A DNA stretch of 62,179 bases, filler included, from Kipferlia bialata (taxonomy: Eukaryota), in assembly GCA_003568945.1 (NCBI GenBank). It is 4 parts of 4 records of this genome, joined end to end, with 100 filler letters (N's around TTAATTAATTAA, not from the genome) between each part and the next. Parts side by side here need not be neighbours in the genome. Positions count along the whole stretch, not along the records: positions 1 to 18,974 come from BDIP01000448.1; positions 19,075 to 31,868 come from BDIP01000450.1; positions 31,969 to 43,154 come from BDIP01000451.1; positions 43,255 to 62,179 come from BDIP01000452.1. One strand, written 5' to 3'. Made by a program: the position numbers and the translations under genes. Under the pieces are notes generated by a model, which was not told where the DNA came from, ran no database searches, and worked only from the letters and a program-made list of their open reading frames with translations. This document shows, piece after piece, positions 9,601 to 52,200 of this stretch. Numbering within the stretch: position 1 is the first letter of the stretch; every line of letters starts with the position of its first letter.

Positions 9601-10346
9601 AGGCATCTACCCTGCCCAGCCACAGGTATGATCATTACAAGGGCTGGAATTATTCGCCAACTTCTTATATATATTGTATATATAGTAATATACATAGCAT
9701 TTTATAGGTATCGCTGCTCCAGGCATCTACCCTGCCCAGCCACAGATATATAATTATATAGTATAATTTACTAAATAACGATTCCACTGTGAATATGTCT
9801 ATATAGAACGCCTCTTGACATCTGACCCAGGTGGATACTTGATTATGGATATTATATCCGATATATATATACAATATATATATATGTATATAGTATTCTC
9901 ACCCCAGTGGTTATATGATTAAGGATATTTTATATTATATTAGCATATATATAGTATTCTCACCCCAGGTGGAGACTGACCCTCAAGAAGGTCGACATTG
10001 AGTCTATTGCATATACTATATCCTCTCATGTATATGAATATATATATATATTATTTATATAGTACTCTGACCCCAGGTGGAGACTGACCCTCAAGAAGGT
10101 CGACGAGTACATCATCACAGTGGTAAGTCGCAACATATTCTCTATCATATGTATATACTACTCCTACTTACCCACTTTCTTCTGTATTATTTCCATATAT
10201 TGTTTCATAATTCATTATTGTATTCATGTCTCATATTCCAGGCTAGGTTAGGCCAGGACCCCTCTGTCCACTCTGAGGAGTGGACCCAGCTGGTGGCCAG
10301 GGCATTCACAGACAAGAAGACAGGGGAGCAGGATGGTGCGACTCAT

Positions 10347-10380
<34 letters not shown>

Positions 10381-10466
10381 TGAGGAGGAGAGAGAGAGAG
10401 AGTGGACCCAACTCGTGGCAAGGGCATTCACAGACAAGAAGACAGGGGAGCAAGATGGTACGACTC

Positions 10467-10519
<53 letters not shown>

Positions 10520-13500
10520 TTTAGAGAGAGAGAGAGAGAGGGGAGAGGGTGGCAAGGGCAAATACATACAAGAAGACGGGGAAGCAGGACGGTACGGCAT
10601 GCATCAGTACAGCGTTGTCTGAATGTATGTGTCTTCGTGTTTGGTTCTCACCCCCAGTACCTGACTCTGTGATTGACCAGGTCATTGCCCACTCTAGGGT
10701 CATTGGGGCCAAGCAGGTGGAGGGGATCGAGAGGGCCCAGGTGAGATTAGCTCCATATGCCTTATGACTATATGAATATGTGTGTACACATTAACTTTGA
10801 TGCATATTATACGATATGAAGAGACTCAGACCAAGCAGGTGGAGGGGATCGAGAGGGCCCAGGTATGTAATAGTATACAATCCTATTACATGTAATAATA
10901 GCGAGTATATATATACAATAGTATGGGTATGGGAGCCAAGCAGGTGGCGGGGATCGAGAAGGGTCAGGTGCGTATACAGTTCCCTATGCCTTATGAATAT
11001 GTATAGATGGATACTGTGATTTGAAGTCTTCTATGTAGTACTCACTACAGGCCGACAGGCTGCGCAGGCAGCGGGAGAGTTTCAGAATACTAATAGTATT
11101 ATCTGATCACTATACCATATATACGTGTGTTCCTGTGTCATACTTACCATAGGCCGACAGGCTGCGCAGGCAGCGGGAAAGGGAGGAGAAGGCGTCCATC
11201 CGCAAGATGGAGACTGAGAGGAAGGAGAGAGAGAGAGAGGAGCGCTCCCGTTCCTCCAGCTCATCACCTCCCAAGTCGCAGAAGGCAGCCCCGAAGGTAG
11301 GATTTATTAACATATATATGTGTGGGAGAGTGTATGTGTGTATTTTCTATGCTACTCATCGCCTCCCAAGTCGCAGAGGGCAGCGCCTAAGGTTAGTCAG
11401 GATATGAGTTAACATATGTATATGTATGTTAATATATTTAGTATGCCATTTGCTAGTGCAACTCCATAGTACTGTATAAGTATACAGTCACACTTTCTAT
11501 ACAGTGGCACTGATGTATCTTAAGATGCCATCTTTTGCGTGTCTACAGTGTACAGTAACAACGTGTGATTCACAACCACACAATTATCTCTCTTCACTCT
11601 GCGGCTATGCCACATACCCTTACACTGCATGTTGCACCACACACTATCATGGTAAGTAAGGCGCACTTCTGTCACTGTGTAATATACTCTATTGGGTGGA
11701 AAGTGAGTAGAGATGTTATGTTTGGTCTCTCTTCTTATGTATGGCCTCACCCACCAGCCCAAGGCTGCCAAGGCCCCTATATTCTGTGAGGCGATAGTTA
11801 GATGTGTTATGTGTGATCTCTTCTCTAAATGAATGTCCTCACATCATCCTTGTATGTGTCTCTTTATGTAAGTGTTGGTATATGATATATCTCTCTGTAT
11901 TTGGCTGCCCTTACATCAGCCCAAGGCTGCCAAGGCCCCCACCCCCAAGGCTTGGTCTCTCTCTCCCTATCTCTCTATATCTATCTCTCTCTCTCTTTCT
12001 CTCTGTATGTATGTCCTTACATCAGCCCAAGGCTGCCAAGGCCCCCACGCCCAAGGCCGCCACCCGTGTCATCAAGAGGATATCAAAGAGCAAGAGGAAC
12101 GCCCCAATGACACAGGTGGGGCATTAAATACAACATGTATCTATACTGTACAATTGATTTTGCATGGAATACCACATGTATATGCACTGTTCAATGAGTA
12201 GATATATATATATATGGAGTATAATTAAATAGCAAGAGGAACGCCCCAATGACTCAGGTAGGGCATGGAATACAACATGTATATGCACTGTACAATTGAT
12301 TTTGCTTCATGCTACGCGAGTAGCTATATATATATATATATATGGTGTATGAGGAAAGAGCAAGAGGAACGCCCCAATGACACAGGTAGGGCATTGAATA
12401 GCATGTATCTCTTCTTGTGAAGTCGTTTGCTATATTATTATTCTTCTGTGTGATATACTAACCCCAGGCCGAGCTCTGTCTGACTGCTGCCCTTGGACTC
12501 AACCTGGGTATGGGTATCCTGCAAACGCGTATATATATATATAGTTATAGTGTATACATATTGTATAGAGTGTGTGTGCATCAGTAGTGATATGGATGCC
12601 CTTGGACTCAACCTGGGTATGTGTTAGTGGATGTATATATATAGTTATAGTATATATAGAAGGTATATAACGTTGGTGTATCAATGATGACATGCATGCC
12701 CTTGGACTCAACCTGGGTATGTGTTAGTGGATGTATATGTATACGCTATCAGTAACTATATAGATGTATGAAGTATGATATCAGTAATGACATGCATGCC
12801 CTCGGACTCAATGTGGGTATGGGTATCATGTGTATACATGGATAGATATAGTGGATACAGTAGTAGATGCAATTAGTATACGTATGTGTACATGTACATG
12901 TACATGTACATGTACATGTACATGTATATAATATCTCTGATCCCTAGGCCTGGGCCCCAGTGCCGCTGACAAGGAGAGGGAGAGGGAGAGGGAGGCAGAG
13001 GCAGAGGCAGAGAGAGAGAGACTTGCCGAGGAGGCCGAGAGAGAGAAGGAGAGAGAGAAGAGGCTCAGGGCTGCCAAGGACAGAAAGAACAAGAAGGAGA
13101 GAGAGAAGAGAGCGGCACTCAAGCTCAGACTGGAGCAGGTGGGTGACTGAGTGTTCTCAAGTATCTATTCACTTATCCACCCATTCTACTTACTCTCTAT
13201 TGTATGTGTATATACATACTATTGTCTCACCCCCAGAAGAAGGAGGCTGACCGCCTTGCTGCCGAGCACAAGGAGAAGGAGAGGGAGAGAGAGAGACAGA
13301 AGGAGGAGAAGGAGAAGGAGAGGGAGAGGGAGAGAGAGAGACAGAAGGAGGAGAAGGAGAAGGAGAGGGAGAGAGAGAGACAGAAGGAGGAGAGAGAGAA
13401 GGAGAGAGAGAAGGAGCGGCTGCGGAAGAGGGCGGCAGACAGAGAGAGGGAGAGAGAGAGACAGAAGGAGGAGGCTGAGCGTGAGGCAGCCTCCAAGTCT

Positions 13501-14912
13501 ACGAAGAGTCCCCACCTCTCTGCATACCCCAGGGCCAAGAGATCGGCACTGGTGGCAGCAATCGCTCAGCTGGAGGTAATAATGATACATATGCTCTTCC
13601 GCTGAACCCTTTATTCTCTCCTCCCTACACCCTTTAACTGTCAGAAGTGGGCCATGGAGGCTTTCGAGGATAAGGAGCTCAGACGGACCATCGGAGTGAG
13701 GTATATATATATGTAAAAATAGCATCACTACTCCCTCTCAAGACTACCTATAGTGGGAAGACTCTCTCCCTTTTTAGAAGTTACATTTTGTATATACATG
13801 TGTACTGATGTCTCAGGAAGAGAGAGTTCATTGCCGAGTGGTTCTGTGACCCTGTGTCCTGTGACATGCTGATACCATTGGATGATGTACAGGCTCTGAT
13901 GCACTGCAGTAAGACAGGTATGCTTAAAGTTTACACATGCATATGTATGTGTATTCATATATGGACCAATATATGTATGATACCATTGGATGATGTGCAG
14001 GCACTGATGCACTGCAGTAAGACAGGTATGTATATAATAATATAAAATCTAATAGGTATATATATATATATATTTGAGGATAACAGAGTCATATAGGGAC
14101 TAACCCCAGACTCAAGTGGTGCTGTTGAGATTGTGAGATCTATTGGATATATAACTAATATAGTCTACATATTTGTGCCTAATCTGTATCTAACCCCAGT
14201 CTGCAGTGACGCCGTTGAGATTGTGAGAATACTGATAAAGCAGAGAGGGAGAAGAGATACATAGAGCATAGTGTGTGTATATATGAGGCCTAACCCCAGT
14301 CTGCAGTGATGCCGTTGAGATTGTGCGGTCCAAGGCCAAGGCTAGCAGATCATCATCATCATCATCCTCCGCTAGGGTGAAGACGAAGGAGGAGAGAGAG
14401 AGAGGGTCCGGCACCAAGAGGGAGAGAGAGAGTGCGGACAGGCAGGCACAGCTCGAGGCATTCATGGAGAAGAAGAGAGAGGTATGTATCTTTATATCCA
14501 CTATGTGATTATTGTCGTCTTGACAACTTTGATTTCTACTTATTTCTGTCTCATATGATGTTCATTATGTATCCCTCACCCCAGAAGAAGGAGAGGGAGA
14601 GGCGGGGCAAGGACTACAAGAAGGACCCCAGGTTAGTGAGCTATCATGAGTATCCGTGTGACTGTGTCGTCGTTTCTCTCTCTCTCTCTCTCTCTCTCTC
14701 AATATATATATATATGAATATATATATCTCTATGTGCAAATCTATCCCCCTAGATACAAGGCCCTGTCTGCCATGGCCTATCCCAGACACAAGTTATCTC
14801 TCTCTCTCTCTCTCTGTCTCCTATATATACGTGTATATGTATCTAACCTAGGTACAAGGCCCTCTCTGCCATGGCCTATCCCAGGCACAAGAGAGCTCTA
14901 TCTCTCTCTCTC

Positions 14913-14943
<31 letters not shown>

Positions 14944-15409
14944 GTCTATAGATATATATATATACCTAACCCTAGGTACAAGGCCCTGTCTGCCATGGCC
15001 TATCCCAGACACAAGAGAGCNNNACCCTAGGTACAAGGCCCTGTCTGCCATGGCCTATCCCAGACACAAGAGAGCTCTGTTCATGGCTGCTCACGACAAG
15101 CTGCTGGTTAGTTGGAAATATACATAGGACATACTATATATATATATAATTATATATACATTAATATATATATATATCTATATTGTGCTTCTGTTCATGG
15201 CTGCACATGACTGATTATATATAGTGGTACATATGTATCGTATGCGTGTCGGTATCTATATTTTAAATTGATTATATACACTTACCCCCAGGCTGATCTG
15301 GAGACCATGCCCACATACTGTCAGCCTGGCCAGCCACACCCAAGGTATGTGTATGTATATATATATATATATATTCGTATATGTATTAGTATGTTTATAG
15401 CGTTAAGAC

Positions 15410-15457
<48 letters not shown>

Positions 15458-15946
15458 CAATATGCTCTACTGTCACTATGTTCTCATCGTCCTTCTCTCT
15501 CTCTCTGATACCCTTTCAGTGATATGTTATTTGTCTACGGTACTTACCATAAAGGTTAGGCCCATCTCCCCTCATCACTGTCATTACATAGACATTGTTT
15601 CTTTCATATAAGTATAAGTGGGTATGTGTTCTCTCATGCGACTCCTATTCACCTGTAGGGGTGAGGCCAAGCGCCACTTCATCACGGAGTGGTTCCATGA
15701 CAAAACTACAGGAGAGAGGGTGACCAACAACAAGACGGGCATCATCCACTTCATGCACACGAGGTGAGATATTGTAGTGGTTGTTGTATACTCTATATGT
15801 TCTGTATGCGTTTACTCACCCCCAGTGTTGTCATTGTGGATGATTCTGCACAGGCAGCGACAGAGGCTGCTGAGAGGAGGGCCCGTAAGAGGGCTGGGCA
15901 CTCTAGCAGTCGGAGTCACGGCAAGGGAGCATCCCGCAGAGACTAG
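169..15946 (+). CDS. Gene A: giant multi-exon (~30 exons) protein, 5'-truncated. Contains MORN repeats, ERERE/low-complexity linkers and ~6 copies of an unnamed module
   Basis: GT-AG exons join in one continuous frame. Examples: 169-258, 838-914, 1326-1361, 1671-2408, 2515-2598, 2735-2802, 3647-3905, 5794-5899, 6347-6740, 6814-6919, 6980-7953, 8333-9447, 9550-9625, 10077-10122, 10242-10335, 10658-10740, 11154-11296, 13237-13575, 13817-13917, 14300-14481, 15031-15106, 15659-15763, 15826-15946 (…GASRRD*). The gene spans an N gap at 4772-5754, so continuity there is inferred. Confidence 0.8.
1661..1670 (+). promoter_or_regulatory. Representative branch point fused to the 3' splice site (CTAACCCCAG); motif recurs at nearly all introns in the window
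   Basis: ctcaccccag (1316), ctaaccccag (1661, 33951), ctgaccccag (8323, 10067), and the reverse complement ctggggtgag in minus-strand genes. There is no polypyrimidine tract between branch point and AG. Confidence 0.85.
4141..4670 (+). repeat. ~110-120 bp tandem array: 5 copies of an exon 3' end plus GT donor plus AT-rich spacer
   Basis: The unit atccagcagcaccagctacaggtggccag.gagtgcaaggggtc.acaag.g.ggt occurs at ~4143, 4250, 4372, 4492 and 4610. Only the first copy is part of an exon. Confidence 0.92.
4772..5754. other. Assembly gap (N run) inside an intron of gene A
   Basis: Continuous run of N. Confidence 0.99.
7520..8440 (+). other. MORN repeat array (~7-8 repeats) within gene A
   Basis: Repeated Y-x-G-x-W/F-x3-4-G-x-G units: YTGGWMDCLPNGQG, YEGAFVAGSMDGYG, YEGEWRNSLPNGEG, YTGGWKDGLKHGVG, IEGEWKADKLHGHA, YVGQMEEGKYSGFG, and after the intron YEGEWREDIRHGKG. 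Confidence 0.93.
12887..12926. repeat. Self-complementary (TGTACA)n microsatellite
   Basis: Six or more perfect palindromic hexamers just upstream of an acceptor. Confidence 0.9.
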
Positions 15947-16442
15947 AGGTACTTGGGGTACTTGGGGTTCTTCAAGATCTGAGGGTTACTGATTGTTCCA
16001 TGATAGTTTCGGCGATAGTGTGGTACTGTCGTCAGAATCCGTTCCCCCTCGATATGAGTCTGCGCCATTAGGAGTGTCCATACATAACCACCACGAGGAC
16101 ATATCTCTATCGTATGTCCGGTAGTTTGGATACTGGCTTCGAGGGTCAAGGTGTCCGTTTGGAGGGATTCCGCTCCACCTCTGTTTCTGTAATCTGTTTC
16201 GACAGCATCATGTGGTATGGTTGTTTTCACTGGCGTCATTACATTACTCAGGCATTTTTGTTATCTATTTACGAGTGGACAATAGACTTGTGCCTGTTTC
16301 ACAGCTATTCTTGTAATGTCGAATTCAATACCGGCTATAATCGAGGCACTCTATTCTATAGCGTCCTGCACACTGTCAACAGGATATATGGATACTCTAG
16401 AGAGTAGAGTCACTCTAATCTATTCCAATTCTCATATAGATT

Positions 16443-19074: not shown

Positions 19075-19222
19075 GAGGCATTGAGTGGCGCAAAATGGGA
19101 AATGGGGGGGGGGGGGAGTGAATAGAGAGTAAGAGTAAATCAACACCCACCAGCTATACCGTATCGTATTACAAGAAAATGTCTCTCCCAAAAACGACAT
19201 ACATACATACATACATATATAC

Positions 19223-22200
19223 CTGTCCTCTGTGAATGTGCATCTGGGACAGGAAGGAGTCTCTGAGGGTTAGAACACATCGGCCTGGTGTATTCACAAA
19301 CTAGTGTTACAATGAGCGCTCAAGTAGCCCAAAGATAGTCACTATGAGTACATTACCTCTCTTCGGGGGTTACGGTGTCTCTGAGCATCTGCTTCTCGAA
19401 GATAGCCAGAAGTGCTTCATCGGCCTTGCACTCCGCCACCACCCGATCATGCTCCTGCTGTGACTCAAGCATTGACTTGAAGGCATTGGCCTTTCTGTCG
19501 GTGAGAGCACCACGCAGGTTGTGACATAGGGCCACGTGCTCTTGACTGAGCTGCACGTCCTCGGCAAAGGTCCTTCTCTGATATAAGATATATGATATAT
19601 GATAGGTAGTCTGGGACATAATAATGTGTAAACATATCACCTGCATAAAAATGACTATACTGCCAGATATATATACCTGCATCGTCTGGGATGTAGTACT
19701 GACAGAGACAGTGCTTCTAGGGTTGACTGCACTGGCAGGTGCCGCAGTGGGCAGAGGGAGGGGTGACTGGGGTAAGAGGCTCGTGGAAACAGACATTTGT
19801 GGGAAGGTCACCCAACAATGGTGGTGTGTCACTGACCTGGGTGCTGGCAGGTGCTATGGGACCCTGGCCACTGACTGTATGGGCCCCGTCAGACACGTCT
19901 CCCCCTGGAGTGACAGCTGAAACAGAGGCAGAAGTAGCTGAGGGTGCAGAGGCACAAGCAGCTGTGGGTGCAGAGGCACAAGCAGCAGTGGGTGCAGAGG
20001 GACGTGCAGCTGTGGGTGCAGAGGCACAAGCAGCAGTGGGTGCAGAGGGACGTGCAGCAGTGGGTGCAGAGGGGGGTACGACATCAGCCGAGGCAGGGTG
20101 AGATTCCTGTGTATCGCCAGAGTGACTGTCTATACTGGAGACAAGCGTCACAGGTGCAACCTGATCCTGACATCAGACTCTCTTTCATATACACATTAGT
20201 AGTAGTACTAACGAACTATACTAAGTAGACCACGGGTCATGGGCCAAAAGACAGTGACACAGCAATACATATTTACATATATGTACCTTCGGTGCGGGAG
20301 CCGGGGCCCCGATGGACACGAAGAGCCCGTCACTGGACACTGGCATAAGAGTATACGCATTAGTGACATAATACTATTGATAATCCACACCTGATGACTT
20401 CAAGTTCTGTGCCATCCTCTCCTTGGCTGTCTTCACTGGTATCTGCAGTGGCAGACGCTTAGGGGGACCTTGGGTCACAGGTCCCTGAGGTGAGCGATCG
20501 GAAAGGACATCAGACAGTAAGAGAGGAATGAATGCTACTCACCAAGTGTCATACCCGGCGTATGAGACACACCACTGCATATTCACAAAGGAACCCCTCC
20601 AAACAAGTGTGCAAACACAAAACAAATGCTACTTTCACAAACAGCCCAATATATACTCATTATAGTACCTTGTCAGTGTTGCATGGTGCCCTTGGGCGCT
20701 TGGTGGGTCTCTGTGAGGGTGGGTCAGGCACTGACCGTGAGAACATGATATATATGTACACGGAGAGTGAACAACTACCATGAACAACAACCATGAATAG
20801 AGTGACATACCTGGGGTGGAGAGGGGGTCCCGGGCGCCAACAGTCGGGTCTCCCGTCAGTGACATCACAGCCCCATCATGGAAGCCGACTGGTGTGAGTG
20901 GGTATTGCGTACCTGGGCAAGGATACAGTATCACATATACAACACCAGTCTCCACTCACTCTGCGACTGTGTGTTCCGGGCCATATTGCGGACTGAAGCA
21001 GGAGGACGGACTTGATGTGAGAAATGTTGGCAACGTTATATAGAGTATCCGTGTACACGATGTAAAATCATTGATATGACACTAATGGCCAGAGTAGCAG
21101 GGTTGCTATACCTATTTCTCGTCGTGGCACGGTTGTGCGCTGCGGAAGGGAACCGGGGCACATGACCTGTGAGTAGCTCGAAAAGAGAACAATATCACAG
21201 GAATAATATGTATATGTGTACTATATAATTAACCCGTATTCAATGTTCCTATTATGATAAATAGAAGAAGTGAGCGATCAGACGAGCCAAAGTTATCTTG
21301 AACTACAATATAAAACGTACCCTCACAGTCTCCTTGCCGGAGTCGATACCAGACAGAGGGACAGTAGGTGGGGGCTGAGATCAGGGACTAGAAGAGATGA
21401 CAACAGGTCTGATTGAAATACAAGGCCTAGCAGTATAATGCAGAATGTGTACCACTGACCTTAACCTGGGTCCCACCGTCACTCTCCCCAAGTGCGTTAG
21501 AGACGGCCACGGAGCCTGGATAAGAGACACAAGTATTGAATCAATACTATTGATAGATATATATATATATGAGGGACCTTCTGAACAGGCAAGTATATAT
21601 AGGTAGCATATATATTTCTGAATCTCTGTGTGAGTATCTGTAGTAACGTTGAAGACTGACATACAGTAAAGTACCTGTGGACCCAGAGGGCACACCAGAG
21701 GGCAGAGATGCCGGTTGAGCCTGACGTCAGAAACTATAGAATGGCATGAGTGGGTATACTAGCACACATATGACGTTGCACAAGCCAAAATGTAACGGAA
21801 TACTAGCACTGACAGACACTGGCACACACACACACATATATATATATAAATATGTATGTATATACCTCCTGTGTCTCCTTGGGGACTATGTCTGTGGGGA
21901 CCGAAGCCCTCTCGGCAGATGGCACAGCGGATGGCACAGGGGATGGTGCAGAGGTCATGGTCACCAGGGGAGCTGTCTGGGCTGCCAGACCTAGGGTAAG
22001 GCGGGCAGCAGCAACACAGACAATACTACTGATACTGTGTTGTCGAGTCCAGAAGATTACACAAATAGTTGTGACTGACGTGGTTGTGTACCTTGGGACA
22101 TGACGTGTGTCGGTAAGAAGCCACCTGGATCAGTGAGTTGCGACACAGTGAGAGGGGTGAGGATCACATGGTGTTGTGGGATATGACACAAAGTAATATA

Positions 22201-31200: not shown

Positions 31201-31807
31201 CAGTACCAGTGTCAGTATCACTCAGCCCCCTTGCACTAGGTATACGGGTCATGGCTTCTCTCTGCCTGTCTCCCCTCCGTGCAACCTAGGCATGAGACCA
31301 GATCCATCTACTACATATCTGAACCCATACATTGACCATCAGAGACAAAGGGACACGTACAACATGAATACGTATGCATCTCCATATATATATACATATA
31401 TACATATATATAACCGATCACGCTGTCACTAGTGGTACTGGCTCCCATACCTGAGCCTCGGGGAAAGCTGCACTGTGGGAACCCCTCGACTGTGGTGCAC
31501 CAGTGCGTCTCGAGTCGGTTGAGGCCGTGGAACTGCCCTTGGGTCAGGAGTTAGAAGGAGTAGAAGAAGTAAGTAGCAGAGAGACAGATAGCAACACTCT
31601 CTTGGCTGCATCATACCCTTTCGACACGTGCTCTGACACACCTCATATTCACACACTATATGTGTACACACACTATACACAATATGTGTAAACAACCCCG
31701 ACCTGGGACTGGGCCACCGGGGTGGCATGAGTCTCACTGACCTTCACTTGGCCTTTGCGACCAGCGAATCGGCTCAGACGACTGAGAGACCTACTCATCT
31801 CGTCAAG
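19223..31807 (-). CDS. Gene C: very large multi-exon hypothetical protein (disordered N-terminal part, helical middle), truncated at both ends
   Basis: Dozens of minus-strand exons with ctcaccccag-type acceptors and GT donors, e.g. LDEMSRSLSRLSRFAGRKG (31.7k), DQEKIARMQNVLKRKSERE (29.4k), EICRAEYRACIAKKAP (28.3k), WRHFLTFRVSNALEEALDHLQ (25.3k), TALDSFLVRVLPFLDVALTD (25.0k), RRTFAEDVQLSQEHVALCHNLRG (19.5k), RDSFLSQMHIHRGQ (19.2k). No stop/start break was seen, but not every junction was checked, so it could be more than one gene. Confidence 0.6.
19936..20072 (-). repeat. 24-nt coding tandem repeat (SAPTAACA/SAPTAARP) in gene C
   Basis: Units of gtgggtgcagagg… repeat about 5-6 times. The ORF track shows PSAPTAARPSAPTAACASAPTAARPSAPTAACASAPTAACASAP. 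Confidence 0.9.
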
Positions 31808-37200: not shown

Positions 37201-40166
37201 CATGACGCATGGGTATATGAACAGACCCCCCAGGGCAGTCATCACAAGGGACGTGGTAAGGGGCCAGGAGCCCGCCTGTGGTTATTGTTAGTGTAAGCAA
37301 GAGAGTATATAATGTAACTGCCAACACTATTGAACAAATGAATATATGTATATATAGTACCTCCTCTAAGTAATCTGACTGCGATGTCATCAGGGACACT
37401 CTCTCAGATATTGTACAATATATGTAGTACTTATACCATTATACATATATATGTGTGTGCGAATATACCTCCTCTAAATAGTCTGACTGTGAGGTCATCT
37501 GAGACACTCTCTCTGACGGTGTCAGCAGAGATGTCAGGTCGTCCCAGGGGGATGAGACACCGGAGGGGCAGGGGACACAGTGCGACATGCCTAGGATTAG
37601 AATGTATGTATACTGAGTAATATATGAGACTAGGATACCACTGGAAATATATTGTCTATAGTGGTATAAGTCAAGGGGGTAAGGGACACAGTGCGACATG
37701 CCTAGAATTTGACTATTGACTAGGGATAATACAATAGAAGACATATACTATAGTATACATATGGTATTGTACTTAAGTAGTATATATGCCAGAGGGGCAG
37801 GGGACACAGTGACATGCCTAGAGTCAGACTAGCATGTTGTAGTATATACACACCTAGTCTTACTATACATCTATACAAATAGTATAACACTACAAATGGA
37901 ATATTTACATACACACACCAAGAGGTCTGAAGTAGTCAGTATCAGTATCAGTATATATACTACATATATTACATACTATATATCACATCCATACACACCT
38001 AGAGGTCTGAAGTAGTCCTCTGAACACGCAGAGCACAGGGAGTGGGTGTGGCCTGGGGTGAGTACTGATATATACACATATTCACACATACACATATATA
38101 TAAGGGGGAGGGGGGGGGCGGAGAGAGCATAGCCACGTACCTGGAATGCACACCCCTTCTGCATCCACCGGTGCCACATATGCAGCAGAGTAGTACTCTG
38201 TGTCAACTGATACAAAGTCAGTGTTGACAGGGTCAGAGTCACTGTCCTTAACCATGTATGCAGCAGTGGAAGTGTCTGTTGTGATGGACGATATGATGCC
38301 ACCGTCGTCGTCTGTCAGGATACTGGGGTGAGGGTATACTATACACTGAGACATATACATATATATATATATATGTGGATATAGATAGATTGTCCCTCTC
38401 ACCTGTAAACCTCTGGGTTACCGCATCTCTCGTCCAGGATACCATACCCACACAGCGTCACTGCATAGTCTCTGTCTATGATACTCTCGACAGAAGAGGC
38501 GTCCAGCCAGTAGCCTGGGTCAGACATACATGTCTCTACAAGTACACCTAATTGTGGTACATATGGCAGAGTCTAGAATGACAGACAGTAGAAGTAGAAC
38601 AACACACTACATACCTAGTGTTGGTAGCAGTGTAAGTCCCCCTGGGCATGCCACAGCATCAGGGCAGAGGGAGCACACATTGTCATAGCCCACACTGAAG
38701 GGTGAGGGTGGTATATATGAAAATCCAAAGAGATTAATGACTTTCTAAATATGGATATGCATTTCGGGACACACATTGTCATAGCCCACACTAAAGGGTG
38801 AGAGGTAAATACAGAACAATAGAAATAGAATGGCGACTGTACATGTGAGTGTATACAATGTACTCTCTGAAGGGTGAGAGGGGAGTTAAAATCAATATCT
38901 ATATATGTTAATCACTCACCGTGTAGTGTCACACACGCACAGCTCACTGGACCCACTACCCTCTGCCAGAGTGGTGCTGTCTATGCATGGCACACACTCA
39001 GTCATGCCCAGGGAGGGCTGGTACTCACCTGGAGGTAAGGGAGCGTACCAATATAGAGAGAGACATAGTGTGTTCACTCACCCACTATACAGTCTAAGCA
39101 GTAGTCCTTGGATATAAACTACGTATAATACAACTACAATAACTAGTATTCAATAATAAGTATGTAAACTCACCCACTACACAGTCTAAGCAGTAGTCCA
39201 TGCCGACCTCTGGGCCATAGGTGCCTATGGGGCAGGGGTCACACACGGACATGCCTGGCATGAGTGACACACCAATAGAGAGTGAAAAAATAGACTTAAC
39301 TAAAGTTGATATATATGCGTACTCAGTACACATTGGAGGATTGCTTCAGAGACCGATGAGACGTGACACTCAATACAAGCCATACATGAATATACATGCA
39401 TACATATACCTGCCAATGGCTGCTGGTACCCCTCTCCACACTCGGTGCAGCCATCATATCTGGGGGGGGTAAGGCGAGAATAATTTTGGTGGGTGGATGG
39501 GAGTGCCGAGTAAGAAGGGGAATGAAAACTGAAATAGAATAGATACTCTTTACCTGTTACCAACCGAGCCGGGCTCACACTCACAGACAGCCTGGGGTCA
39601 GGTATCAATAGTACAAAGGTAGATAGTAGTAATATAAAGGAGAGGAAGCAATAATTGTTTATAGACATACGATTATATATGTCTACCTGTACGTATAGGG
39701 CGTCATCTGGGATGGGACAGCTGAACACGTTCCCAGTGATGTCGAGGAAGGTGAGTGCAGGGCAGATACCCGTGACAAGCAGGCCATCCAGACTGTTGGA
39801 AGCGAGTGACAGTGTGGACAATGTGCCCGATGAGGTGGCTGATGCACAGTACGTGTCTGAGTAGCAGTCGGCCATGATGCCACCTTCTAGGCTGTTATCG
39901 CTGAGGTCAGTAATACTATAATACAATATTAACATTTATACAGTATATGTAATAATAATTATATGAAACTAATACTGATACTGATAGCGATACCTGAGGT
40001 CCAGTGCAGTGAGGGAGGGGTGGTTGGACAGGATGCCCTCGGGGATGGAGCCTGGGGTGAGGGTGGGTATATTTAATATATATATATGGTATATATGGTA
40101 TATATGGTATATATATGGTAAATACCAACTGGACAGGATGCCCTCGGGGATGAAGCCTGGGGTTGG

Positions 40167-40210
<44 letters not shown>

Positions 40211-40740
40211 TATATATGGTAAACATGGTATATATCAACTGGACAGGATGCCCTCGGGGATGGAGCCCGGGGTGAGAGTGGGTATGTATGTAAAAAGTGG
40301 CCACAACTAGTACCTGACCTCTCTACAATATATATACAAAATAATACACTCTAACATGTAGCGAATTATATCCATCGTCTCTAGTGTACCTGACAGCTTG
40401 TTCCCCTGTAGATACACCTCCCTGAGCCCAGCTGCATCAGTACTGGCCAGAGTGTCAGGCAGGGACTCTGTGTACCTAGTATTAATATACATCTAGATAC
40501 AAATATATATATATATATGTATATATATATAGAGAGAGAGCGAGAGCGAGATACCCATTGTTCTCAAGGTGGATGGTCTCAATGAGGGGGCAGGAGAAGA
40601 GAGAGGAGGGCAGCTCATTCTGGAAGGCATTCCCAGACATGTCGATTGAGACAAGCTGGTGTTAAGGGTGTAGGGAGAGAGAGAGAGAGAGAGAGGCATT
40701 GCCAGACATGTCGATGGAGACAAGCTGGTGTTAAGGGTGT

Positions 40741-40772
<32 letters not shown>

Positions 40773-40870
40773 GCATTCCCAGACATGTCGATGGAGACAA
40801 GCTGGNNNNNNNNNNNGAGAGAGAGAGGCATTCCCAGACATGTCGATGGAGACAAGCTGGTGTTAAGGGT

Positions 40871-40910
<40 letters not shown>

Positions 40911-42940
40911 ACGTACCTGCGGCCATGCTGCAAATACGTCAGTGCACGTGGAGTAGAGGTTGTGAATTATATATATATATATATAGGTATGTGTGTATAT
41001 GTATATATGCACCAACCTCTGTCCAATCTGCAAACACGTCAGTGCACGTGGAGTAGAGGTGGTGAAAGTATCATATATATATATATATAGGTATGTGTGT
41101 ATATGTATACATGCACCAACCTGTGTCCATGCTGTAAATACGTCAGTGCACGTGGAGTAGAGGTTGTGTAATAATCATATATATATATATATATATTAAT
41201 GAGAAAAGTATATGAGTATAGTATATAAATATGAGATTATACATGTGCATACCTGCGTCCATCCTGCAAACACGTCAGTGCACGTGGAGTAGAGGTTGTC
41301 GGATATGTCAAACTCAACCAGGGAGGTGAGGCCTGAGAGTCAGGATCGGTATCAGTATCAGTATAGAGTAATGATACGTATCAGTATACAATAATGCCAG
41401 TGATGCCTGAGAAGTGGGAGGGTAGGGTGAGTATCAGCATCAGCGTATAATAATACGTCTCAGAATAAAATAAGGATCAGTATCAGTATCAGTATCAGTA
41501 TCTAAGATCAGCAGAGGTATATGTTCCGAAAATGAATTATAGTACAATAATGACACTGATACTATTATTAGTGTTACCTTCGAAGTGGGATGGCAGTGTG
41601 AGTGTGAAGTCATCAGTATCAGTACTATATAATAATATACCACATATAATATTGTGTTATTAGAGTATTAATGTACTAACTCTGATACCTTCGAAGTGGG
41701 ATGGCAGTGTGAGTGTGAAGTCATTGGCAGACAGGTCCAGGTGGGTCAGGGAGGTCAGACCCCCAAAGCAGTCGGGTAGGGCTCTGATCTGGTTGCCTGA
41801 GTTATTCATACATTAATATCACAAGTATATAATATATTAGTTCAATACAAGTAAATAGTAAGTATACTTAGAATCTCTCTTGCCTGATGCATTGAACACC
41901 TCGAGGGTGGTGGTGGAGCAGAAGCCCTGGGGTGAGAGGGGTATGTAACAATATTACACAATATACGACTCATGAACAAGAAAGTGTCGCACCTCTGGTA
42001 TCTGTCCATAGAATGTGTTGCCGGACACATCTGCATTCTGGAGGGAGGACATGGATCCAAGGGCAGCTGGGAGAGGGCCTAGGGTAATGTACATGTATAC
42101 TTAGAGAGAGAGAGAGAGAGAGAGAGGATATGGATCCAAGGGCAGGGAGGGGGAGGATATATATATACGTATACAGAGAGAGAGAGAATGGTCCCACCTG
42201 TGATCTCGTTCCCCGATACGTTGAGAGACACACACATGTATAGACCAAGGGGAGAAAACATTTGTATATTAATATATATTCAAGAATGGTATATGTGATA
42301 TATAATACTTGCCTGTGATCTCATTCCCTGACACATTGAGTGACACACATGCTGTCAACTGGCCAATGTGGTTGGGGATGTACCCAACCAGGTTGTTATT
42401 GGACAGATCAAGGGCAGTGATCCTGAGGTTAATGATATACATTGGAATGTATGTGTCCATATGGTTGATAAAGCGAATATAGTATAGTATAGTATATAGT
42501 ATATATCAGGGGCAGTGATCCTGAGTATCAAACCAAGAGGAGAGTACTAAGGCGGTCAAGGAGAAGACACAAAACCACTGATAACTTGAGCAGACAATAC
42601 ATACACGATTTACAGAAATATATTATGGGTAAAAGACTAGTATGTGCGATATATACCTGTATACAAACCCGTCTGCCGCCCTTACATATTTTAGGGTGCA
42701 CATAATTGAAAATACTATACACACCATGTAACCAAATAGATGAATGTGAGTGTACACACACCCATCTGCCGCAATGGCATATATATTATTAATATATTAT
42801 TAATATATATTATTAATATATACTAATATATACTAATATACATATATAATACATAGTATAACTATCAGTGTACCTGTACACAAACCCGTCTGCCGCACTG
42901 GCATCTACCTCCATGGCACAGGTCACGCCGGAGAAGGAGT
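34203..42940 (-). CDS. Gene E: LRR + Cys-rich (CxxC, TNFR/ephrin-receptor-like repeats) + multi-TM cell-surface receptor, 5'-truncated
   Basis: Plant-type LRRs: ITALDLSNNNLVGYIPNHIGQLTACVSLNVSGNEITGPLPAALGSMSSLQNADVSGNTFYGQIPE and LTSLTHLDLSANDF. Cys-rich repeats: CTECGEGYQQPLAGMSVCDPCPIGTYGPEVGMDYCLDC and GHTHSLCSACSEDYF. Multiple TM helices at 36086-37275. A Pro-rich tail ends …FADMSR*. Confidence 0.88.
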
Positions 42941-43154: not shown

Positions 43155-43254
43155 NNNNNNNNNNNNNNNNNNNNNNNNNNNNNNNNNNNNNNNNNNNNTT
43201 AATTAATTAANNNNNNNNNNNNNNNNNNNNNNNNNNNNNNNNNNNNNNNNNNNN
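43155..43254. other. Artificial contig-joining spacer
   Basis: N44-TTAATTAATTAA-N44, flanked by poly-G and poly-C. Confidence 0.97.
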
Positions 43255-43436: not shown

Positions 43437-46349
43437 GCTGTCTCCACCAATGCCCTCTCCACTGTGTCGACACTCGCGCCAAAGACAAGGTACATCCATA
43501 TATTGTATATTGAGCACAATTGAAAGAAATACTCTACACGCATATATATTTGTCCCGGTGTCTTTCCTGACACTCACCCTAGGTCCCAGTCCCCTGACGA
43601 TGTTGCCCTCTTCCTACTGACCAGTGTGGATGTCAGGGCAGCCCTCTTTGGGTCGAGGTATAAGTGAATATACTTGTATATATATGTGTCTTCAATACAT
43701 ACTCATCTTTGTTAAGCATATTCTAGGATACAGTGTGGATGTCAGGGCAGCCCCGTTTGGGTCCAGGTACGATACATTATGTACCACTGTTATATATATA
43801 TATATATAAACATTGATTCTTTCATATAAGTCTGTAGAGTATCAATGTGTTTGTATAAACAGGTGTGTATGTGAGGGCAGCCCTCTTTGGATTGAGGTAT
43901 AGGATATATGATATGTATGATATACTCTCTGTACTCTACTCACTTGTATTGGATCGAGATATGATTTTCATTTGTAGTTCAAGACATTCTAGTTTCACTG
44001 TGTGTTTACCCCAGGTCCTATGGTTCTGAGGCTGACATGGCTCGCAAGCTAGCAGTCCTCGCCGTCAGTGACTGGAAGGCAAGGAACACTCGGTCAAGTG
44101 GAGTCAACGAGTCTGACAAGGTCACGGATCTTGCCAGTGAGGACCAGTGGGTGGTTGCACAGACTGAGGAGACTCTGCTGAGAAGGTGAGTAGTATTATT
44201 GTCGTTGGGAATCGAACCCAAGTCCTCTCACCTCTCAGGTCGTCCCACATTAGGGAGATGCTAGTGGTTGCCAATGAGGTGGCCACCCAGGACCTGACAC
44301 CGACAGAGTCCACACAGCCACACTCTCTCAGGTACTGTCTATCCTAATTCTCTCTACCCACCTTCCTCCTATCTCTGAGGCATTATCGTCTCTAATCATA
44401 GACTAGAGGTTCCCCCCTCCAACGCCTCCTCCATCAAGGGGTCTCTCTCTCTCTCTCTCTCCCCCCCCCCCTCACTCTCTAATCATAGACTAGAAGTGCC
44501 CCCCTCCAACGCCTCCTCCATCAAGGGGTCTGAGCCCTGGCGCAGTGTGTCTGTGTTCAACACCCAGCCCCCTAGTGCATTCACCACATCTGCAGCATCT
44601 CTGAGGGCATTCAACCCGGCCAATAACAGGTACGTATATATTTCTTTGCCAATGGATAACATGGCCAACAACAGGTTATGTGACAGTGTACATGTGTATT
44701 ACTATTTTGACATGGTAACCTCGGATTCTCTAACCTCTAGCTTTGATGCTGATGACACTGAGGGTGACGGCATCTCCCTGCCTGTGGACAGAGAGGCAGA
44801 GAGAGAGGCAGACGCAGACGCTGATAAGGGTGGCAGGTAGATATCACTATATATATATAGAGAGAGAGAGATAGAGAGAGGCAGAGAGAGAGGCAGACGC
44901 AGACGCTGATAAGGGTGGCAGGTAGAGTATTGTGCACTATATACACAGGGAATTGTCCATCATTCATATAAATTCATATATACCTCTATGTAGATACTGA
45001 CCCTGGAGTGCTGTCCATCGAGGAGATGCTGCTCACAGCCAATTCTCCATATTGCATATATACATATGTGTGTATGTACATAACTCAATGATCTATCACT
45101 CACTCTAGGGTACTGTCCATCGAGGAGATGCTGCTCACAGTCAATTCTCAATGTTGTATGAATGCATATATACATGTATATGTATGTACATACATCAATG
45201 ATCTATTACTCATTACAGGGTACTGTCCATCGAGGAGATGCTGCTCACAGCCACATGGGAGGACATTCAGGTATCTACACATGACTGTAGATATTTATAC
45301 ACAGTATTTCACTCCAGAACATTGGGTTGTCTTATGTTAAGTTTTATTTTTGTATTTGATTATATATATATACTTAATATCTGGAATATTTGTGTACACA
45401 TGTGTATACTGATATCAGGTCCAGGGTGGCAGACTGGGGTGTATCATAGTCTTTAATATATGTATACCATTTGTATTCTACACATATACATGTAGTGTAT
45501 ATGTTGACTGAAATTCTATACCTTTATGTGGAGTGTATATGTATGTGGACTAACATTAGGTCCAGGGTGGCAGACTGGAGGGAGAGAGAGAGCAGGAGAC
45601 CCGGTCTGGCCCTGCCCTAGGGGGTGTCATAGTGGGGAGGCTGCCCCCAGAGATGGTGGCAGGTATATATAATATATATAGTATATAGTTATATAGTTAT
45701 AATATAATAATAATAATATATATATATATGAGTATATGTATACACATGTGTATATATAGTGGGGACCCCCGGAAATGGTGGCAGGTATGGATATATACAT
45801 AGAGATATGGTGTATAATAGTAATGTATGCTCGTCTCTAACCCCAGCTCTTTCCAGCTTCCTTTCCTCATTGTATAAGTGCTTGATGTTTTTTAGTTACT
45901 TGTATTTACCCCAGCCCCCACCTTCCCCTCTAGATGTATAGATAAGTACATGTTTTGGATATCTTACCCCAGCCCCTTCCCGGCCCACCTTCCCCTCGAA
46001 GGGTGTGGACCAGGAGGTCGAGAGGGAGAGGGAGAGAGAGAGGGAGAGGATGTCTGCTGCCAATGCCTCTGCTGCCCTATATGCAGACAGAGAGAGGGAG
46101 AGGGAGAGGGAGAGAGAGCAGTACGAGGCAGAGAGAGAGGCACGGGGGAGGAGGCGTAGTAGGAGCAGAAGCAGGCGCCGTTCTGTTAGGTCACATGTCT
46201 CTAGACACCCCAGGGAGAGAGAGAGAGAGTACGAGCCGATAGGGGGAGAGAGAGATGGTATTGAGGGTGCTGCAGGGGGAGAGGCTGAGAATGGCGACGA
46301 CATTGCCGACCAGCTGAGACTGCTGCTCAGGACAATGTCGAAGCAGTAA
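43437..46349 (+). CDS. Gene F: 3' part of a hypothetical protein with an ERE/RS-rich C-terminus
   Basis: In-frame exons AVSTNALSTVSTLAPKTR / SQSPDDVALFLLTSVDVRAALFGSR / SYGSEADMARKLAVLAV… / VLSIEEMLLTATWEDIQ / …QLRLLLRTMSKQ*. Confidence 0.7.
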
Positions 46350-46549: not shown

Positions 46550-47339
46550 ATGTCTACCATTACCCCTGCCCCTGTCAACACCAGTGACTTATCTGCTGTG
46601 GAGCTGAAGGAGCTGGTGAACAGTAGGTATGGGATATAGCAGTGAGGCAGTGTTTTACAATTGCTATATACTTGTGTATGTATTCTACTATATATAGATC
46701 TAGATGCAGATAAGTCAATAATAGAAGGTAGTATTCCCATGAGCTGCTGAACAGTGTGTATGGGACACATTGTAATACAATGACAATATACATATACTTC
46801 TCTCCGTATGCTACTATATATAGACGCAGTTAGGTATATTGTTACAGTTATTATACCCATCTGATGCTCTAGGAACAAGCAGTTGAGCTCTCTGGAGGAG
46901 GGTGTTGAGATGAGTGACAGTGATGGAGACAGGGGCCATGAGGAACATGACAGGCCATGTACATCCTCACTGGTACGTGTATGAGCAGTATATATAGGTT
47001 AAGCTTAGATGTATGTGTTTACACTATACATTTTGTATATGCGGCGAGAGGGACCATGAGGCAGAGCATGATAGGCCCTGCATATCGCTTACTCATGTGA
47101 CTGACCACATATACATACCCCCCTCTCCTCCCCCCCACAAACACATACAGCCACATCCACCCTCATTCCCCTCTCCACTTGCCTGTGGTTGGGTGTCTTG
47201 TTCACTATTGTATTCTATCCCACCACCGCGCTGTTCTGTAACCTCTACTCTCACTTTCTCGTTACTCATCTTACTCCAGGTAGCCATTGGTGTCCTGTTC
47301 ACACTGCTGGTGGTGCTATGGATCACAGTGTTGATGTAG
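46550..47339 (+). CDS. Gene G: 78-aa protein with a single C-terminal TM helix (tail-anchored)
   Basis: Exons 46550-46626, 46873-46972 and 47280-47339 total 237 nt: MSTITPAPVNTSDLSAVELKELVNSRNKQLSSLEEGVEMSDSDGDRGHEEHDRPCTSSLVAIGVLFTLLVVLWITVLM*. Confidence 0.75.
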
Positions 47340-49284
47340 TGGGGCATAGGTATGTATAGATAGAGTGTGTGTTGGTGCATATGTTAGGCGTATAGTATTT
47401 GTAGTATATTTGTAGAGACTGGTGCTCTCGATTACATTGTTCATGAAACTCAACAATAGGTATTCAAATGCCAAAGTGATTCAGAATATACTACAGTATA
47501 TATCGCTTGTATATCACTTGAATATATATATATTATATACTCATAAATATGTGTATGTGTTATTATTCCTTACTCCCAGTAATGTGTTCACTTGTCGAAA
47601 CAACACCACCTGTTCGTGTACACGTGGGACACCAACGTTTGACTGCGATACCGGGGTGCGTAGGAGGTATCCATACTCTCTGCATCAGAGTGTGCATATC
47701 GCCACATGATGTCCTGACATTCACCGACTCTCAGAGATCCGTACTGGCCACAATCGTTGTTGGCGATGTTCTCAACTGACCTTCCCTCCCTATTCTTCCT
47801 CTGAGATGACCCCCCCCCCCCTCCCCTCCCCCTTTCATTCTTCCTCTGAGTGATGTGGCATTGCGGGGATGCTGCAGGTTCTCTACTGGTCCTGATACAT
47901 GTGCTAGTAGAGCCCTCCTCCGCCCCCTACTTCGCATCCATCCTTTCCCACTGCTATGTTATGGATGGGTGTGGGCGGATATATATCATATAGGGTGCGG
48001 TGTGGTTGTATAGATACCTATATCGTCACATCTATTCCGGAGCAGGAGGGACTCCCCACCCCCCCCCACCCACAGTGTGGGTCCACACATACCCTATGGG
48101 TGCGGGCATATGTCTGACCTTTGACGTGTCTTGTATAGGGAGAGTGCGAAGCTTGAATGCTTTGATATGATATCAATAGACAGAGAGTGGTATTCAGCTC
48201 TTAGATCTAACCAAGGCATCAGACACAATGCTTTCGAGACATTATCCATACCCTCTGCAACACCATCCAGGGGGAAACCAAACCAAATTCTACGCGAGAT
48301 ACTCGAATCAATTCTCTGGTTCACACTGATTGGTGTTTGATTATAGATACAATGACGTTACTCTTATCATACTCTCTAAGCCACAATAGCTAAGATGACT
48401 GTTGCCACCGGAAAGAAGGTAGGAGGGACACTACCGAACCCATTATTAACAACACTGTAGACTTGCTACGAATGCTTCTGTACCACCATGTAGAGTGACC
48501 CGTGCAAACGTCGAGGATTTGGTATATTCATGTTACCTATTATACCTGGACATATATGTATGTATACTTACCCTTACGTGCTTCACTATGTGTTTGTGTC
48601 AGTATATTAGTTGTGATAACTGCCTGTGTTGCACACATATCCCGACAGACCATCTAGAGTGACTTCCTATTGTCCACTCTGTTCAATGTCATACCCGCCT
48701 GCGCTCTCTGGCAGACCTCTCTTACTATACTCCCTCTTACTGTCTATGTTCGTTCCCGTAGTGGTTACACTCATAGTTTCTGCCCCCCCCCCCCCCCCCC
48801 CCCTCCCCCCCCCCTCCCTCTCCCCCCTCTCCCTTCCTCTCTCTCTCTCTCTCCCTCTCTATATATGTATGTGGAAGTATTCCTTGTGTCCTTCTACACC
48901 TCTCCCATGTATATAGTAGGTCACGTTTGTGTACACTGATTGAACGAGGACCCGTATTCTCTCTCCTTCCTGCCGCAGAATGTATATGTATCTCTATATA
49001 TATCACACTGAATGCCATATACATATATTCATATCAGGTAGAATAGGGACCTGTGCCCCCTCTATCCTATATACACACCATGTCGTATTTATCGTCACCA
49101 TACAAGATATATTTATATCTGTAAATGTATATATATGTATACTTATGTGTCTGGATGTGTGTGTGTCGTGATACCAGGTGGAACAGGGAGCTGTGCCCCC
49201 CCCCTTCTGTTTGCATCTCATAATATATAGACTACTCCCACACTATAAATTTATATATATAATTAGCATATATAATGATTCCAG

Positions 49285-52200
49285 ATGGAACAGGGACCTG
49301 TGCACAATCCTCCCCCAACAGGATCTGATGAGACTGCCAAAGATGGGAACACACGCCACAAGAGAGCCCACAAGGGTAATTAGTTGTGTCTATGGCTAAA
49401 GAGTATTGTATACTGTTATAGTATAGTAATAATTACTATATATAAATATATATATGGGTGACTGATGAGGCTACCAAAGATGGGAACACATGCCACAAGG
49501 CTTCCAACCAAGGTTCAATACGATTATAATGGATATAATATGGTATTTCATACTCAGTACTATCTATAGTAATTCTCAGTTACGAGGCAACCAACCAAGG
49601 TTAAATATCAATAACCGTACTTGGCCTAGTATATTGCCAAGAGTATATGTGTTAGAGCGATAGCAGTTATAATACTGTATTGATGCAGAATACTATCATG
49701 TCACTAGGAGTCGACAGTATCAGAGCACTGTCAATGGTGTATTGAAGGAGAATCACTTGGCCTAGTGGTAACACTTACTAGTATAATTAGACAGTCTAAG
49801 TTGATTCACAGGTCACTGGCAGTGTGGAGTGGACGGTGCCAGAGGGAGATTGTGTTCAATAATTGTACATATTATTTAGAGATTATAATTATTTACAGTT
49901 CATGGTAATATTACAGAGAGACTTAACCATCAGGTCACTGGCAGTGTGGTTACAAGTAGAGTTAGATAGTCTATATTAACACTTAGGTCACTGGTAGTGT
50001 GGAGTGGACAGTGCCAGAGGGAGAGGAGAGAGAGAGAGTGGTGAGGCAGATAATGGCACTCAACCACCCAGACCGTACTCTGAACGGCACGCTCCAGAGG
50101 GTTGTGCTACCCAGTCCCGATGAGCCAATTACAAGTCTCCCTTACTATGACGGTATGACAAGCTATACTCAATTTTCGCCTCCATTCTCTCTCTCTCTCT
50201 CTCCCACTATTTCTGCATAAAACTACATTGTATATCAAGCTTGGATATCAGACTGAATCACCTCACCCTCAGGCCCCATCTTTGGCACCCTTGACGAAGC
50301 AGTGCAGCAGGTATAACAGTACATATATTATAAGTGTATATATATATACTATTGTGTGTGCTGATACTGATACTGATACAGACGAAGCAGTACAGCAGGT
50401 ATAATGGTATATGACTATTATGTATACTCTATTGTAGAATATGTACATTATATATACTCTACACTGAAACTGGAAGGCAAGTTTGAATCGTTTTGATTCA
50501 GTCATATGTATACTGTACTGATAGCAACACCTTACAACCACTGGATGCCAACTGGATAGATATCAGTATCAGTATCAGTAGATATGCTGACACATATATA
50601 ATGTATATATATACTGTTCTGATACTAACACAGGCACTGGATGCCAACTGGATAGAGTGCATATCTCTTTTGATATTGTGTATATAGTATGTATAATTCA
50701 CATATGTTGGATATTATGTGATATTATGTAAATAGTATGTATATTATAGACATGTATGTTGTATACTATATATATTTTACAATGTATTACTTATGACTCA
50801 CCCAGGCACTGGACGCCAACTGGATAGAGTGCATGTCCCGTTGATACTAAATGTATTATGCAGACATTGTATACTATATATAGAATAGATGTATTACTTA
50901 TTACTCACCCAGGCACTTGATGCCAACTGGATAGAGTGCATGTCCCCTATATCCTTCTGGCAGGAACAGGCATTGGGGACTAAGGTATCTCTCTCTCTCT
51001 CTCTCTCGCTCTCTCTTCTATAATATAATAGTATATTATTATTTGGTAGATATTGTTATCCCCCTTGTCCTTCTGGCAGGAACATGCAGCACTAGGCACG
51101 AAGTATATATGACCATACCTATGAATATATTGTATATATATATATTTATTATATTCTCTTATATTATATAGTAGAAGGGAGAAGGCATATTTATGAATCG
51201 AATAGTGAATTCAACATATGTGTATATGTATTCTATTACTCTTACTTTGTATACTATTGTGGCAGGAACAGGCACTCGACACAAGAGTGCTCTCATGTGT
51301 ATACATGCTTTGTCTATCTCTCCCTCACCAACTATACACATTGTACACTTATACTATAACACTTTTCGGGAGGCCCTCCTGGGGCTAACTGACACAAACT
51401 GACATGGGAAGTTTTAAGAATTGCTAACTGACAAACTGACTGACAAACTGACAACTGACCTGCCACTATTTCGAAAACTGCGGCCCCTGTACACTTTCAA
51501 TACCATACCATCTTTACCATCTATTTGTGTACTATTCTGTATAGTCTATGTCAGTTGACTTCTGGCCTATAGAGAGGGTCGGGAATGTATTCTAGGATTT
51601 GACCCCCTAAAGAGTTTGGACGTCATGATAGTATTACTAAAACACAGTAACCTCAGGCCTATAGAAAGGGCACCCTTAATACTTGTCATTATTTGGAATC
51701 GTCATTAGTAGTTTTTGTATATATTCTATTGACCTCAGGCCTACAGAGAGGGCAGGGGCGGGAGGGTCATGACACAGAAGCACTCACCCCTGGGTGATGG
51801 TGTCTATATACTACCAGGCCTAGTCAAACACAGGTACAGAAGTATTAAGTATATATGAATCTATGTATCTTGTTGCACAATGGATTATTATACTGTATAT
51901 ATGTATATGATTATATACTACCAGGCTAAGTCAAACACAGGTAAATATTGTATATAGTGTATATGTGTATGATTACATAATGGACCAGATAGATAGACTT
52001 CATATCAGATCGATTTCGGACACAGGTATTACTATGTCAGTTCTTTAACTATTTGTATATAGATACTGTATAAGTATGTGTATACCTACAGATACCTCTC
52101 TCTCTCTCTCTCTTTGTCTCATATACAGCTCTGTGCCCAACTGTGTCAGATGAAGGCTGGAAGACTCTCTCTCTCTCTCTCTCTCTCGTTGTCTCACCTA

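Follow-up and report, generated by a model that had tools for sequence, protein, structure and literature searches.

Tandem duplication of exons can give rise to mutually exclusive exons, in which case paralogous exon sequence with a low ratio of non-synonymous to synonymous divergence (dN/dS) is found in an intron. Already known as well are intron gain by tandem duplication, in which splicing neutralises a local duplication that touches coding sequence, repeats that span an exon–intron junction, and heterogeneous duplications. In the accessible part of the report on human F7, the first unit of the 37-bp variable number tandem repeat of intervening sequence 7 (IVS7) spans the exon–intron boundary, and splicing uses the donor that lies furthest upstream, leaving the pseudo-donors below it silent (PMC1557585). 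Heterogeneous gene duplication, as the accessible part of its description has it, sets two diverged alleles of one locus in tandem, so that the copies differ from birth (PMC6121789). Here we describe echoes in a 62,179-nt stretch of DNA from Kipferlia bialata (the window; one sample, to which all echo counts refer), a species for which the available part of the genome paper reports 124,912 introns (PMC5874029) and for which a reduced spliceosome, with 87 of 174 proteins, is given in the accessible part of PMC6679479. In an echo, the end of an exon and its splice site are repeated in tandem in the genomic DNA. Echoes are skipped in the spliced contig that was examined, and their lineages were under constraint for most of their separate history and then dead.

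An echo consists of about 30 nt of exon end, the splice signal and an intron stub, with a median unit of 107 nt; the exon part measures 18–47 nt (10th–90th percentile) and never exceeds 58 nt. The stub between an exon and its nearest echo has at least 38 nt and mostly 53–93 nt, and introns that are free of echoes measure 53–314 nt (median about 95). Up to four different echoes accompany a single junction, and donor echoes precede acceptor echoes in all 18 introns that hold both kinds. The screen, blind to reading frame, searched the adjoining intron for alignments to every exon end and its splice site; the threshold, set query by query, was higher than the best score that the query reached in any non-adjacent intron. 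From 169 queries it returned 110 echoes in 47 of 85 introns or flanks, belonging to five genes and two short gene models. The echoes at 14969 and 40805 were excluded because they adjoin n-gaps, which leaves 108 for analysis; nine contain gaps. An origin from introner-type elements was considered and rejected, distant self-matches within the window being short and mostly simple repeats.

Over 3277 aligned coding sites, the echoes differ from their exons by 151 synonymous and 95 non-synonymous changes (61% synonymous), and 168 of the 246 differences lie at codon position 3. The proportion of differing synonymous sites (pS) is 0.16–0.20 and that of non-synonymous sites (pN) 0.04, giving a dN/dS of 0.19 with a transition weight of 1, 0.24 with 3 and 0.26 with 5. 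A preliminary description of this DNA had claimed, from six hand-picked pairs, that echoes differ from the exon almost only at synonymous sites. The six pairs are present with the codon differences it gave, as the following echoes illustrate.

10400..10465, plus strand: donor echo of exon 10242–10335, four synonymous and no non-synonymous differences (pair 10278/10400, 4/4 synonymous).
10548–10596, plus strand: second donor echo of exon 10242–10335, four synonymous and four non-synonymous differences.
13978..14030, plus strand: donor echo of exon 13817–13917, two synonymous and no non-synonymous differences (pair 13872/13980, 2/2); the intron after the echo is unrelated.
14748..15012, plus strand: three acceptor echoes of exon 15031–15106, at 14748 (one synonymous and three non-synonymous differences, one stop), 14847 (two synonymous; pair 15032/14853, 2/2) and 14969 (identical, beside an nnn gap).
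42197..42234, minus strand: donor echo of exon 42422–42313, five synonymous and no non-synonymous differences (pair 42349/42234, minus strand, 5/5); the donor is GT in the echo and GC at the working exon.
44389..44444, plus strand: acceptor echo of exon 44489–44629, two synonymous and no non-synonymous differences (pair 44490/44403, 2/2).
49462..49514, plus strand: donor echo of exon 49285–49375, silent across 13 codons (pair 49325/49462, 4/4), then two amino-acid changes before the GT (EPTR versus LPTK).

The silent bias is real, but 'almost only' is too strong for the unbiased set, with its 95 non-synonymous changes among 246; without the six pairs the counts are 133:95 and dN/dS is 0.27. 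The companion claim, that only the distal copies decay, was not confirmed either: echoes of rank 1, 2 and at least 3 give ratios of 0.17–0.23, 0.24–0.32 and 0.18–0.24, and among the examples offered for it the echo at 10548 has as many non-synonymous as synonymous differences, but that at 452 has two synonymous, no non-synonymous and one 5-nt gap.

The reading frames used are independent of the echoes, because the gene models matched annotated proteins (genes C, D and B) or have contig-supported junctions (gene A). The models were built manually on the basis of candidate splice sites. Three exon queries each found one K. bialata protein at 100% identity (KIPB_002624, KIPB_002628 and KIPB_002626), and B, C and D were compared with these annotated proteins; A, E, F, G and the control gene discussed below are models made without that comparison, E, F and G being unverified. 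The genes concerned are as follows.

169..15948, plus strand: gene A, an open spliced frame of 33 exons with AG/GT sites and about 2100 codons, with MORN repeats (PF02493); 44 echoes in 16 of 32 introns.
34207..42940, minus strand: gene B (KIPB_002624), a protein with leucine-rich and ephrin-receptor-like repeats; 28 echoes in 13 of 26 introns.
43437..46349, plus strand: gene C (KIPB_002626), the model giving all 386 residues of the annotated protein; 8 echoes in 5 of 8 introns.
49285..54923, plus strand: gene D (KIPB_002628), SET-domain-like, the model giving all 379 residues; 22 echoes in 9 of 12 introns.
32348..34020, plus strand: gene E (unverified model), four acceptor echoes at 33558–33893 in a single intron.

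The SET match of gene D scores below the curated cut-off, and the model of gene B agreed with its annotated protein over 1058 residues before its final exons were revised so as to keep the frame open. One intron of gene A spans an N gap (4782–5754). KIPB_002624 has two GC-AG introns, at 42312 and 41883 (minus strand), the echo of the first carrying a GT donor.

The low ratio does not depend on whether echoes are of the donor or the acceptor kind or on whether their gene is verified, and genes B, C and D alone give the same value (73:48 synonymous to non-synonymous). Counting unique events only gives 124:89, alignments forced to the splice site give 173:123 and a dN/dS of 0.22–0.27, and the two wrong reading frames give 2.2 and 3.5. 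Four-fold degenerate sites differ in 103 of 548 cases and zero-fold sites in 75 of 2122, an excess with an odds ratio of 6 when crude and 11 when stratified by trinucleotide. No amino-acid change at all is found in 55 of the 108 echoes. The ratio between one echo and another is 0.26, and the changes found in the nearest echo alone are 17 synonymous and 13 non-synonymous, against 27% synonymous sites (p 0.0005). The non-synonymous changes themselves look random: six are stops, with about 4.5 expected, and their mean BLOSUM severity is −0.62 as against −0.67.

The most ordinary explanation would be that echoes are dead tandem duplicates and that the silent bias comes solely from the evolving working exon, together with rate and context effects. 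A dead copy should then give a dN/dS of about 0.5 and not 1, as the preliminary description had supposed, because the working exon would keep gaining silent changes. Simulated single-lineage dead copies passed through the same detection gave 0.49–0.60, whereas a simulated allele-capture model, with extra constrained divergence, gave 0.16–0.26. The silent excess survives this harder null: bootstraps over families range from 0.14 to 0.32 (0.5 reached in none of 2000), and those of the splice-site-forced set from 0.18 to 0.33 (none of 5000). Dead duplication would need an exon that mutates about four times faster than its echo, and it leaves unexplained the context-stratified excess, the silent-biased private and echo–echo changes, and the valid but different splice signals described below. 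In its favour, dN/dS rises to 0.31 in the 22 of 106 echoes with a similar flank, and young identical copies may be hidden by assembly gaps. Part of the echoes are ordinary same-chromosome duplicates, but as a general account we consider dead duplication quite improbable. Simple conversion within one haplotype, from exon to echo or back, was rejected by reasoning, as it would give 0.5–1. For a baseline ratio of 0–0.1, the constrained share comes to about 80–90% of the separating tree, with an estimated dead time of 0.02–0.04 changes per site and a constrained synonymous distance of 0.12–0.16.

The splice signals tell a similar story. The splice dinucleotide is intact in 93 of the 108 echoes, but positions +3 to +6 of the donor are changed in 40 of 51 echoes (about 44% of positions) and positions −13 to −3 of the acceptor in 35 of 40 (about 34%). 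Scored with matrices trained on the echo-free gene, these altered signals do as well as real sites, and far better than working sites to which the same number of mutations was applied (a score as high was reached in 0 of 500 simulations, for donors and for acceptors alike). A signal that is different and still valid is the splice-level counterpart of a synonymous change, and the preliminary description does not mention it. The introns beside echoes are also largely unrelated to those beside the working exons, since only the 22 of 106 mentioned above are significantly similar to the intron beside the working exon (median identity 0.57; at least 0.85 in three), and unrelated flanks occur even next to echoes that are identical to the exon. 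pN is 0.039 whether the flank is similar or unrelated, whereas pS rises from 0.123 beside similar flanks to 0.192 beside unrelated ones (p 0.04), as would be predicted from two clocks, one for a constrained and one for a dead phase. Synonymous and non-synonymous rates per echo show no correlation (rho −0.02), which carries little weight because the detection threshold can mask a correlation. Furthermore, 5 of 10 informative site pairs fail the four-gamete test, as is seen in the following group.

4250..4671, plus strand: four donor echoes of exon 4035–4196, a mosaic of shared variants in which three of six informative site pairs fail the test.

An echo at 968 (915–1124 of the window) shows the opposite of the usual pattern, with four synonymous and one non-synonymous differences in its exon part and yet 39 of the following 40 intron bases matching those that follow the working exon.

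Selection at the protein level could also act directly on the echoes if a minor share of the mRNA read them as alternative exon ends, an option that the preliminary description had raised, or as small exons. The many intact dinucleotides and unchanged amino-acid sequences would fit such use, and contigs drop rare isoforms. However, an echo has one splice site only, a second splice-site-like signal being present in 6 of 59 donor echoes and 1 of 49 acceptor echoes, none of the 108 reaches 80% of its exon, and stops and severity are as random; on the same grounds, echoes were rejected as mutually exclusive or duplicated exons. Evidence on splicing comes from reads placed, as contigs, on 1156 bases of one locus (5760–6915) in one sample. 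Read set X2 was taken as RNA by guess, none of the runs being on record as RNA; its contig is spliced at GT..AG and supports the gene A junctions 4196>5794, 5899>6347 and 6740>6814, the only three seen. Sampled words of 5760–15020 are present at 0.97 in read set X1 and 0.36 in X2, while wholly exonic 31-mers make up 0.395 of that stretch. The second junction concerns this group of echoes:

5975..6246, plus strand: one donor and two acceptor echoes, all within intron 5900–6346 (447 nt), which is spliced out as a single GT..AG intron.

In the two echo-bearing introns of the X2 contig the outer splice sites are used and the echo sites are silent, minor isoforms being invisible in such data, and the upstream loose end of the contig matches the working exon end at 4196 with no differences, as against one to three for the four echoes. 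We therefore regard minor splicing use as very improbable.

Scarcely credible is the assembly artefact also contemplated at first, in which interleaved haplotypes or strains were written in tandem. The species has been reported as diploid from k-mers in the accessible part of the genome paper (PMC5874029), and the echoes at 14969 and 40805 may be scaffolding overlaps. A contig of X1 DNA at 5780–6118, however, carries the exon and two echoes in tandem with no differences, and the inner junctions of echoes alone make up 0.064 of the 31-mers in the stretch of which X1 holds 0.97 of the sampled words; X1 tests assembly and not biology, because it may be the source of the assembly. Besides, there are up to four versions per junction, none of the 110 echoes has an exact match of at least 55 nt to its exon, the junction from stub to echo exists in no intact allele, and stops, gaps and lost sites mark the echoes as dead. 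X1 cover is missing from 6119 onward, which proves nothing. Beside the N gap at 4782–5754, which is flanked by acceptor echoes, short contigs occur at 3–5.6 times the depth of the X1 contig, which suggests that more near-identical copies lie inside the gap.

Since only one copy can work in cis, the past constraint points either to capture from another haplotype or to a swapping of roles on one chromosome. Together, these make it quite probable that echoes are former working junctions. We favour the first possibility, with a probability of about one half: echoes would have been working junctions on other, diverged haplotypes that were set beside the present exon by unequal exchange or by repair from the homologue. 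The archive of old alleles that the preliminary description suggested is supported in part: former function fits the codon, flank and splice-signal tests, while the diverged source allele is something that we infer and have not observed. In the first and long phase, purifying selection would have acted on the echo in the other haplotype. A break in an AT-rich intron may then have been mended with the homologue as template and its ends joined in the wrong register, so that a junction was captured, and in a second, short phase the captured echo would be dead and collect random changes. Echoes would be tolerated if the outermost donor and acceptor are used; for the donor this recalls the oriented scanning described, in the available part of the report, for the F7 IVS7 repeat (PMC1557585), which might operate here as well and even at acceptors. 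Selection would clear copies that hold a whole exon or a whole intron.

Several points weigh against capture from diverged haplotypes. The required allelic distance, with introns that cannot be aligned, is extreme. A second haplotype was not seen, as other letters or exon-end loose ends were absent from the 339 DNA-covered bases and the spliced contig, most of the stretch being without DNA cover; each exon query found one protein and no second version, among longer proteins only; and a metagenome scan for relatives gave 195 pattern matches, none of which was confirmed. Flank class alone makes no significant difference to the ratio of synonymous to non-synonymous changes (p 0.22), and part of the acceptor mismatch counts is inflated by 1-nt offsets. 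Adding 6 nt past the inner edge of the alignments lifts dN/dS to 0.59, although these extra nucleotides mismatch about as often as random sequence, homology having ended there. Same-chromosome duplicates are also under-counted, because near-identical young units collapse or fall in gaps.

Finally, role swapping in dynamic arrays predicts nearly identical patterns. Copies that lie side by side would diverge on one chromosome until contraction of the array promotes an echo to the working junction; only clean copies would survive promotion, and a later unequal exchange would return the former working junction downstream. Echoes would still be ex-working junctions, and deep allelic diversity would be unnecessary. 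Such a process would explain the valid splice signals, the unrelated flanks, the mosaics and the invisible second haplotype, as well as the random non-synonymous changes by way of a last dead phase. The promoted copy would, however, have to avoid every harmful change while idle, and the reordering would still require exchange between haplotypes; under a variant in which second-order selection on echoes continues, stops should be rarer and changes milder than in a random set, contrary to what is observed. On balance role swapping seems unlikely.

A striking contrast is provided by one predicted gene with 49 introns.

19353..31728, minus strand: control gene of roughly 50 exons (piece 19075–31869), essentially echo-free.

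Its 49 introns gave one borderline match of 13 nt, and a search for decayed echoes gave no signal (6 of 70 queries at p ≤ 0.1). The introns are longer than in the echo-rich genes, with a G+C content of 0.40 against 0.36 and a TATA/ATAT frequency of 0.056 against 0.10. The echo-making process is regional or gene-specific, and the contrast offers a handle on where exchange happens. The window is not one locus, as four pieces are joined by N-TTAATTAA-N linkers at 18975–19074, 31870–31968 and 43155–43254. The linkers are adjoined by G- or T-runs that resemble contig-end noise. Other features of the window are short tandem-like repeats within long exons (7187/7391, 8478/8709 and 19923/19995), an open frame of 660 codons at 58166–60145 without a Pfam match, repeated ACTGAC/AACTGAC-type short units, branch-point-like, in a long intron of gene D (51385–51460), and a copy of the last codons and stop of gene D (54897–54931) about 950 nt downstream at 55843–55877, outside the modelled introns and 86% identical.

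A genome-wide recycling of junctions, in which exchange between deeply diverged haplotypes repeatedly parks ex-working junctions in introns, is a tentative extension with somewhat less than even odds. If it is true, one assembly would hold past alleles, sampled and dated, from tens of thousands of introns and a record of cryptic homologue exchange in a free-living fornicate, and introns would grow and be replaced through junction capture. If echoes occur genome-wide, echo–exon pairs would give allelic diversity, a neutral mutation spectrum and evidence of recombination from a single genome, in a lineage without population data, and would amount to thousands of natural splice-site competition experiments, in which donors and acceptors that are nearly identical and of consensus grade lie at a spacing of about 100 nt. 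On the practical side, echo-bearing introns mislead gene finders and spliced aligners.

The combination found here, of dense echoes at both types of junction with unrelated flanks and a trace of past function in codons and splice signals, did not turn up in literature searches, in which subscription journals were thinly covered; the accessible part of the genome paper (PMC5874029) does not mention the echoes, and the main text of PMC9860276 is without the word 'Kipferlia'. Echoes share with the F7 repeat the unit across the exon–intron boundary and, in one contig, the silent inner sites. The units described in the available part of PMC1557585 are, however, near-identical monomers at one locus, whereas those of Kipferlia include about 30 nt that are coding, lie at donors as well as acceptors and, in most of the genes examined, affect about half of the introns; their intron parts are mostly unrelated, and their codons bear a trace of past selection. 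Unlike mutually exclusive exons, echoes are partial, have one splice site, are skipped in the contig seen and contain stops. With intron gain by tandem duplication they have in common that splicing neutralises the duplication, but there a new intron arises from a duplicated exonic AG/GT, whereas in Kipferlia an existing junction is copied and an existing intron only grows. Heterogeneous gene duplication comes close if the echoes are indeed of allelic origin, even though it concerns, in the accessible part of PMC6121789, whole genes that both work and are selected as a pair, while Kipferlia joins junction pieces of about 100 nt, one of them dead, with no benefit implied.

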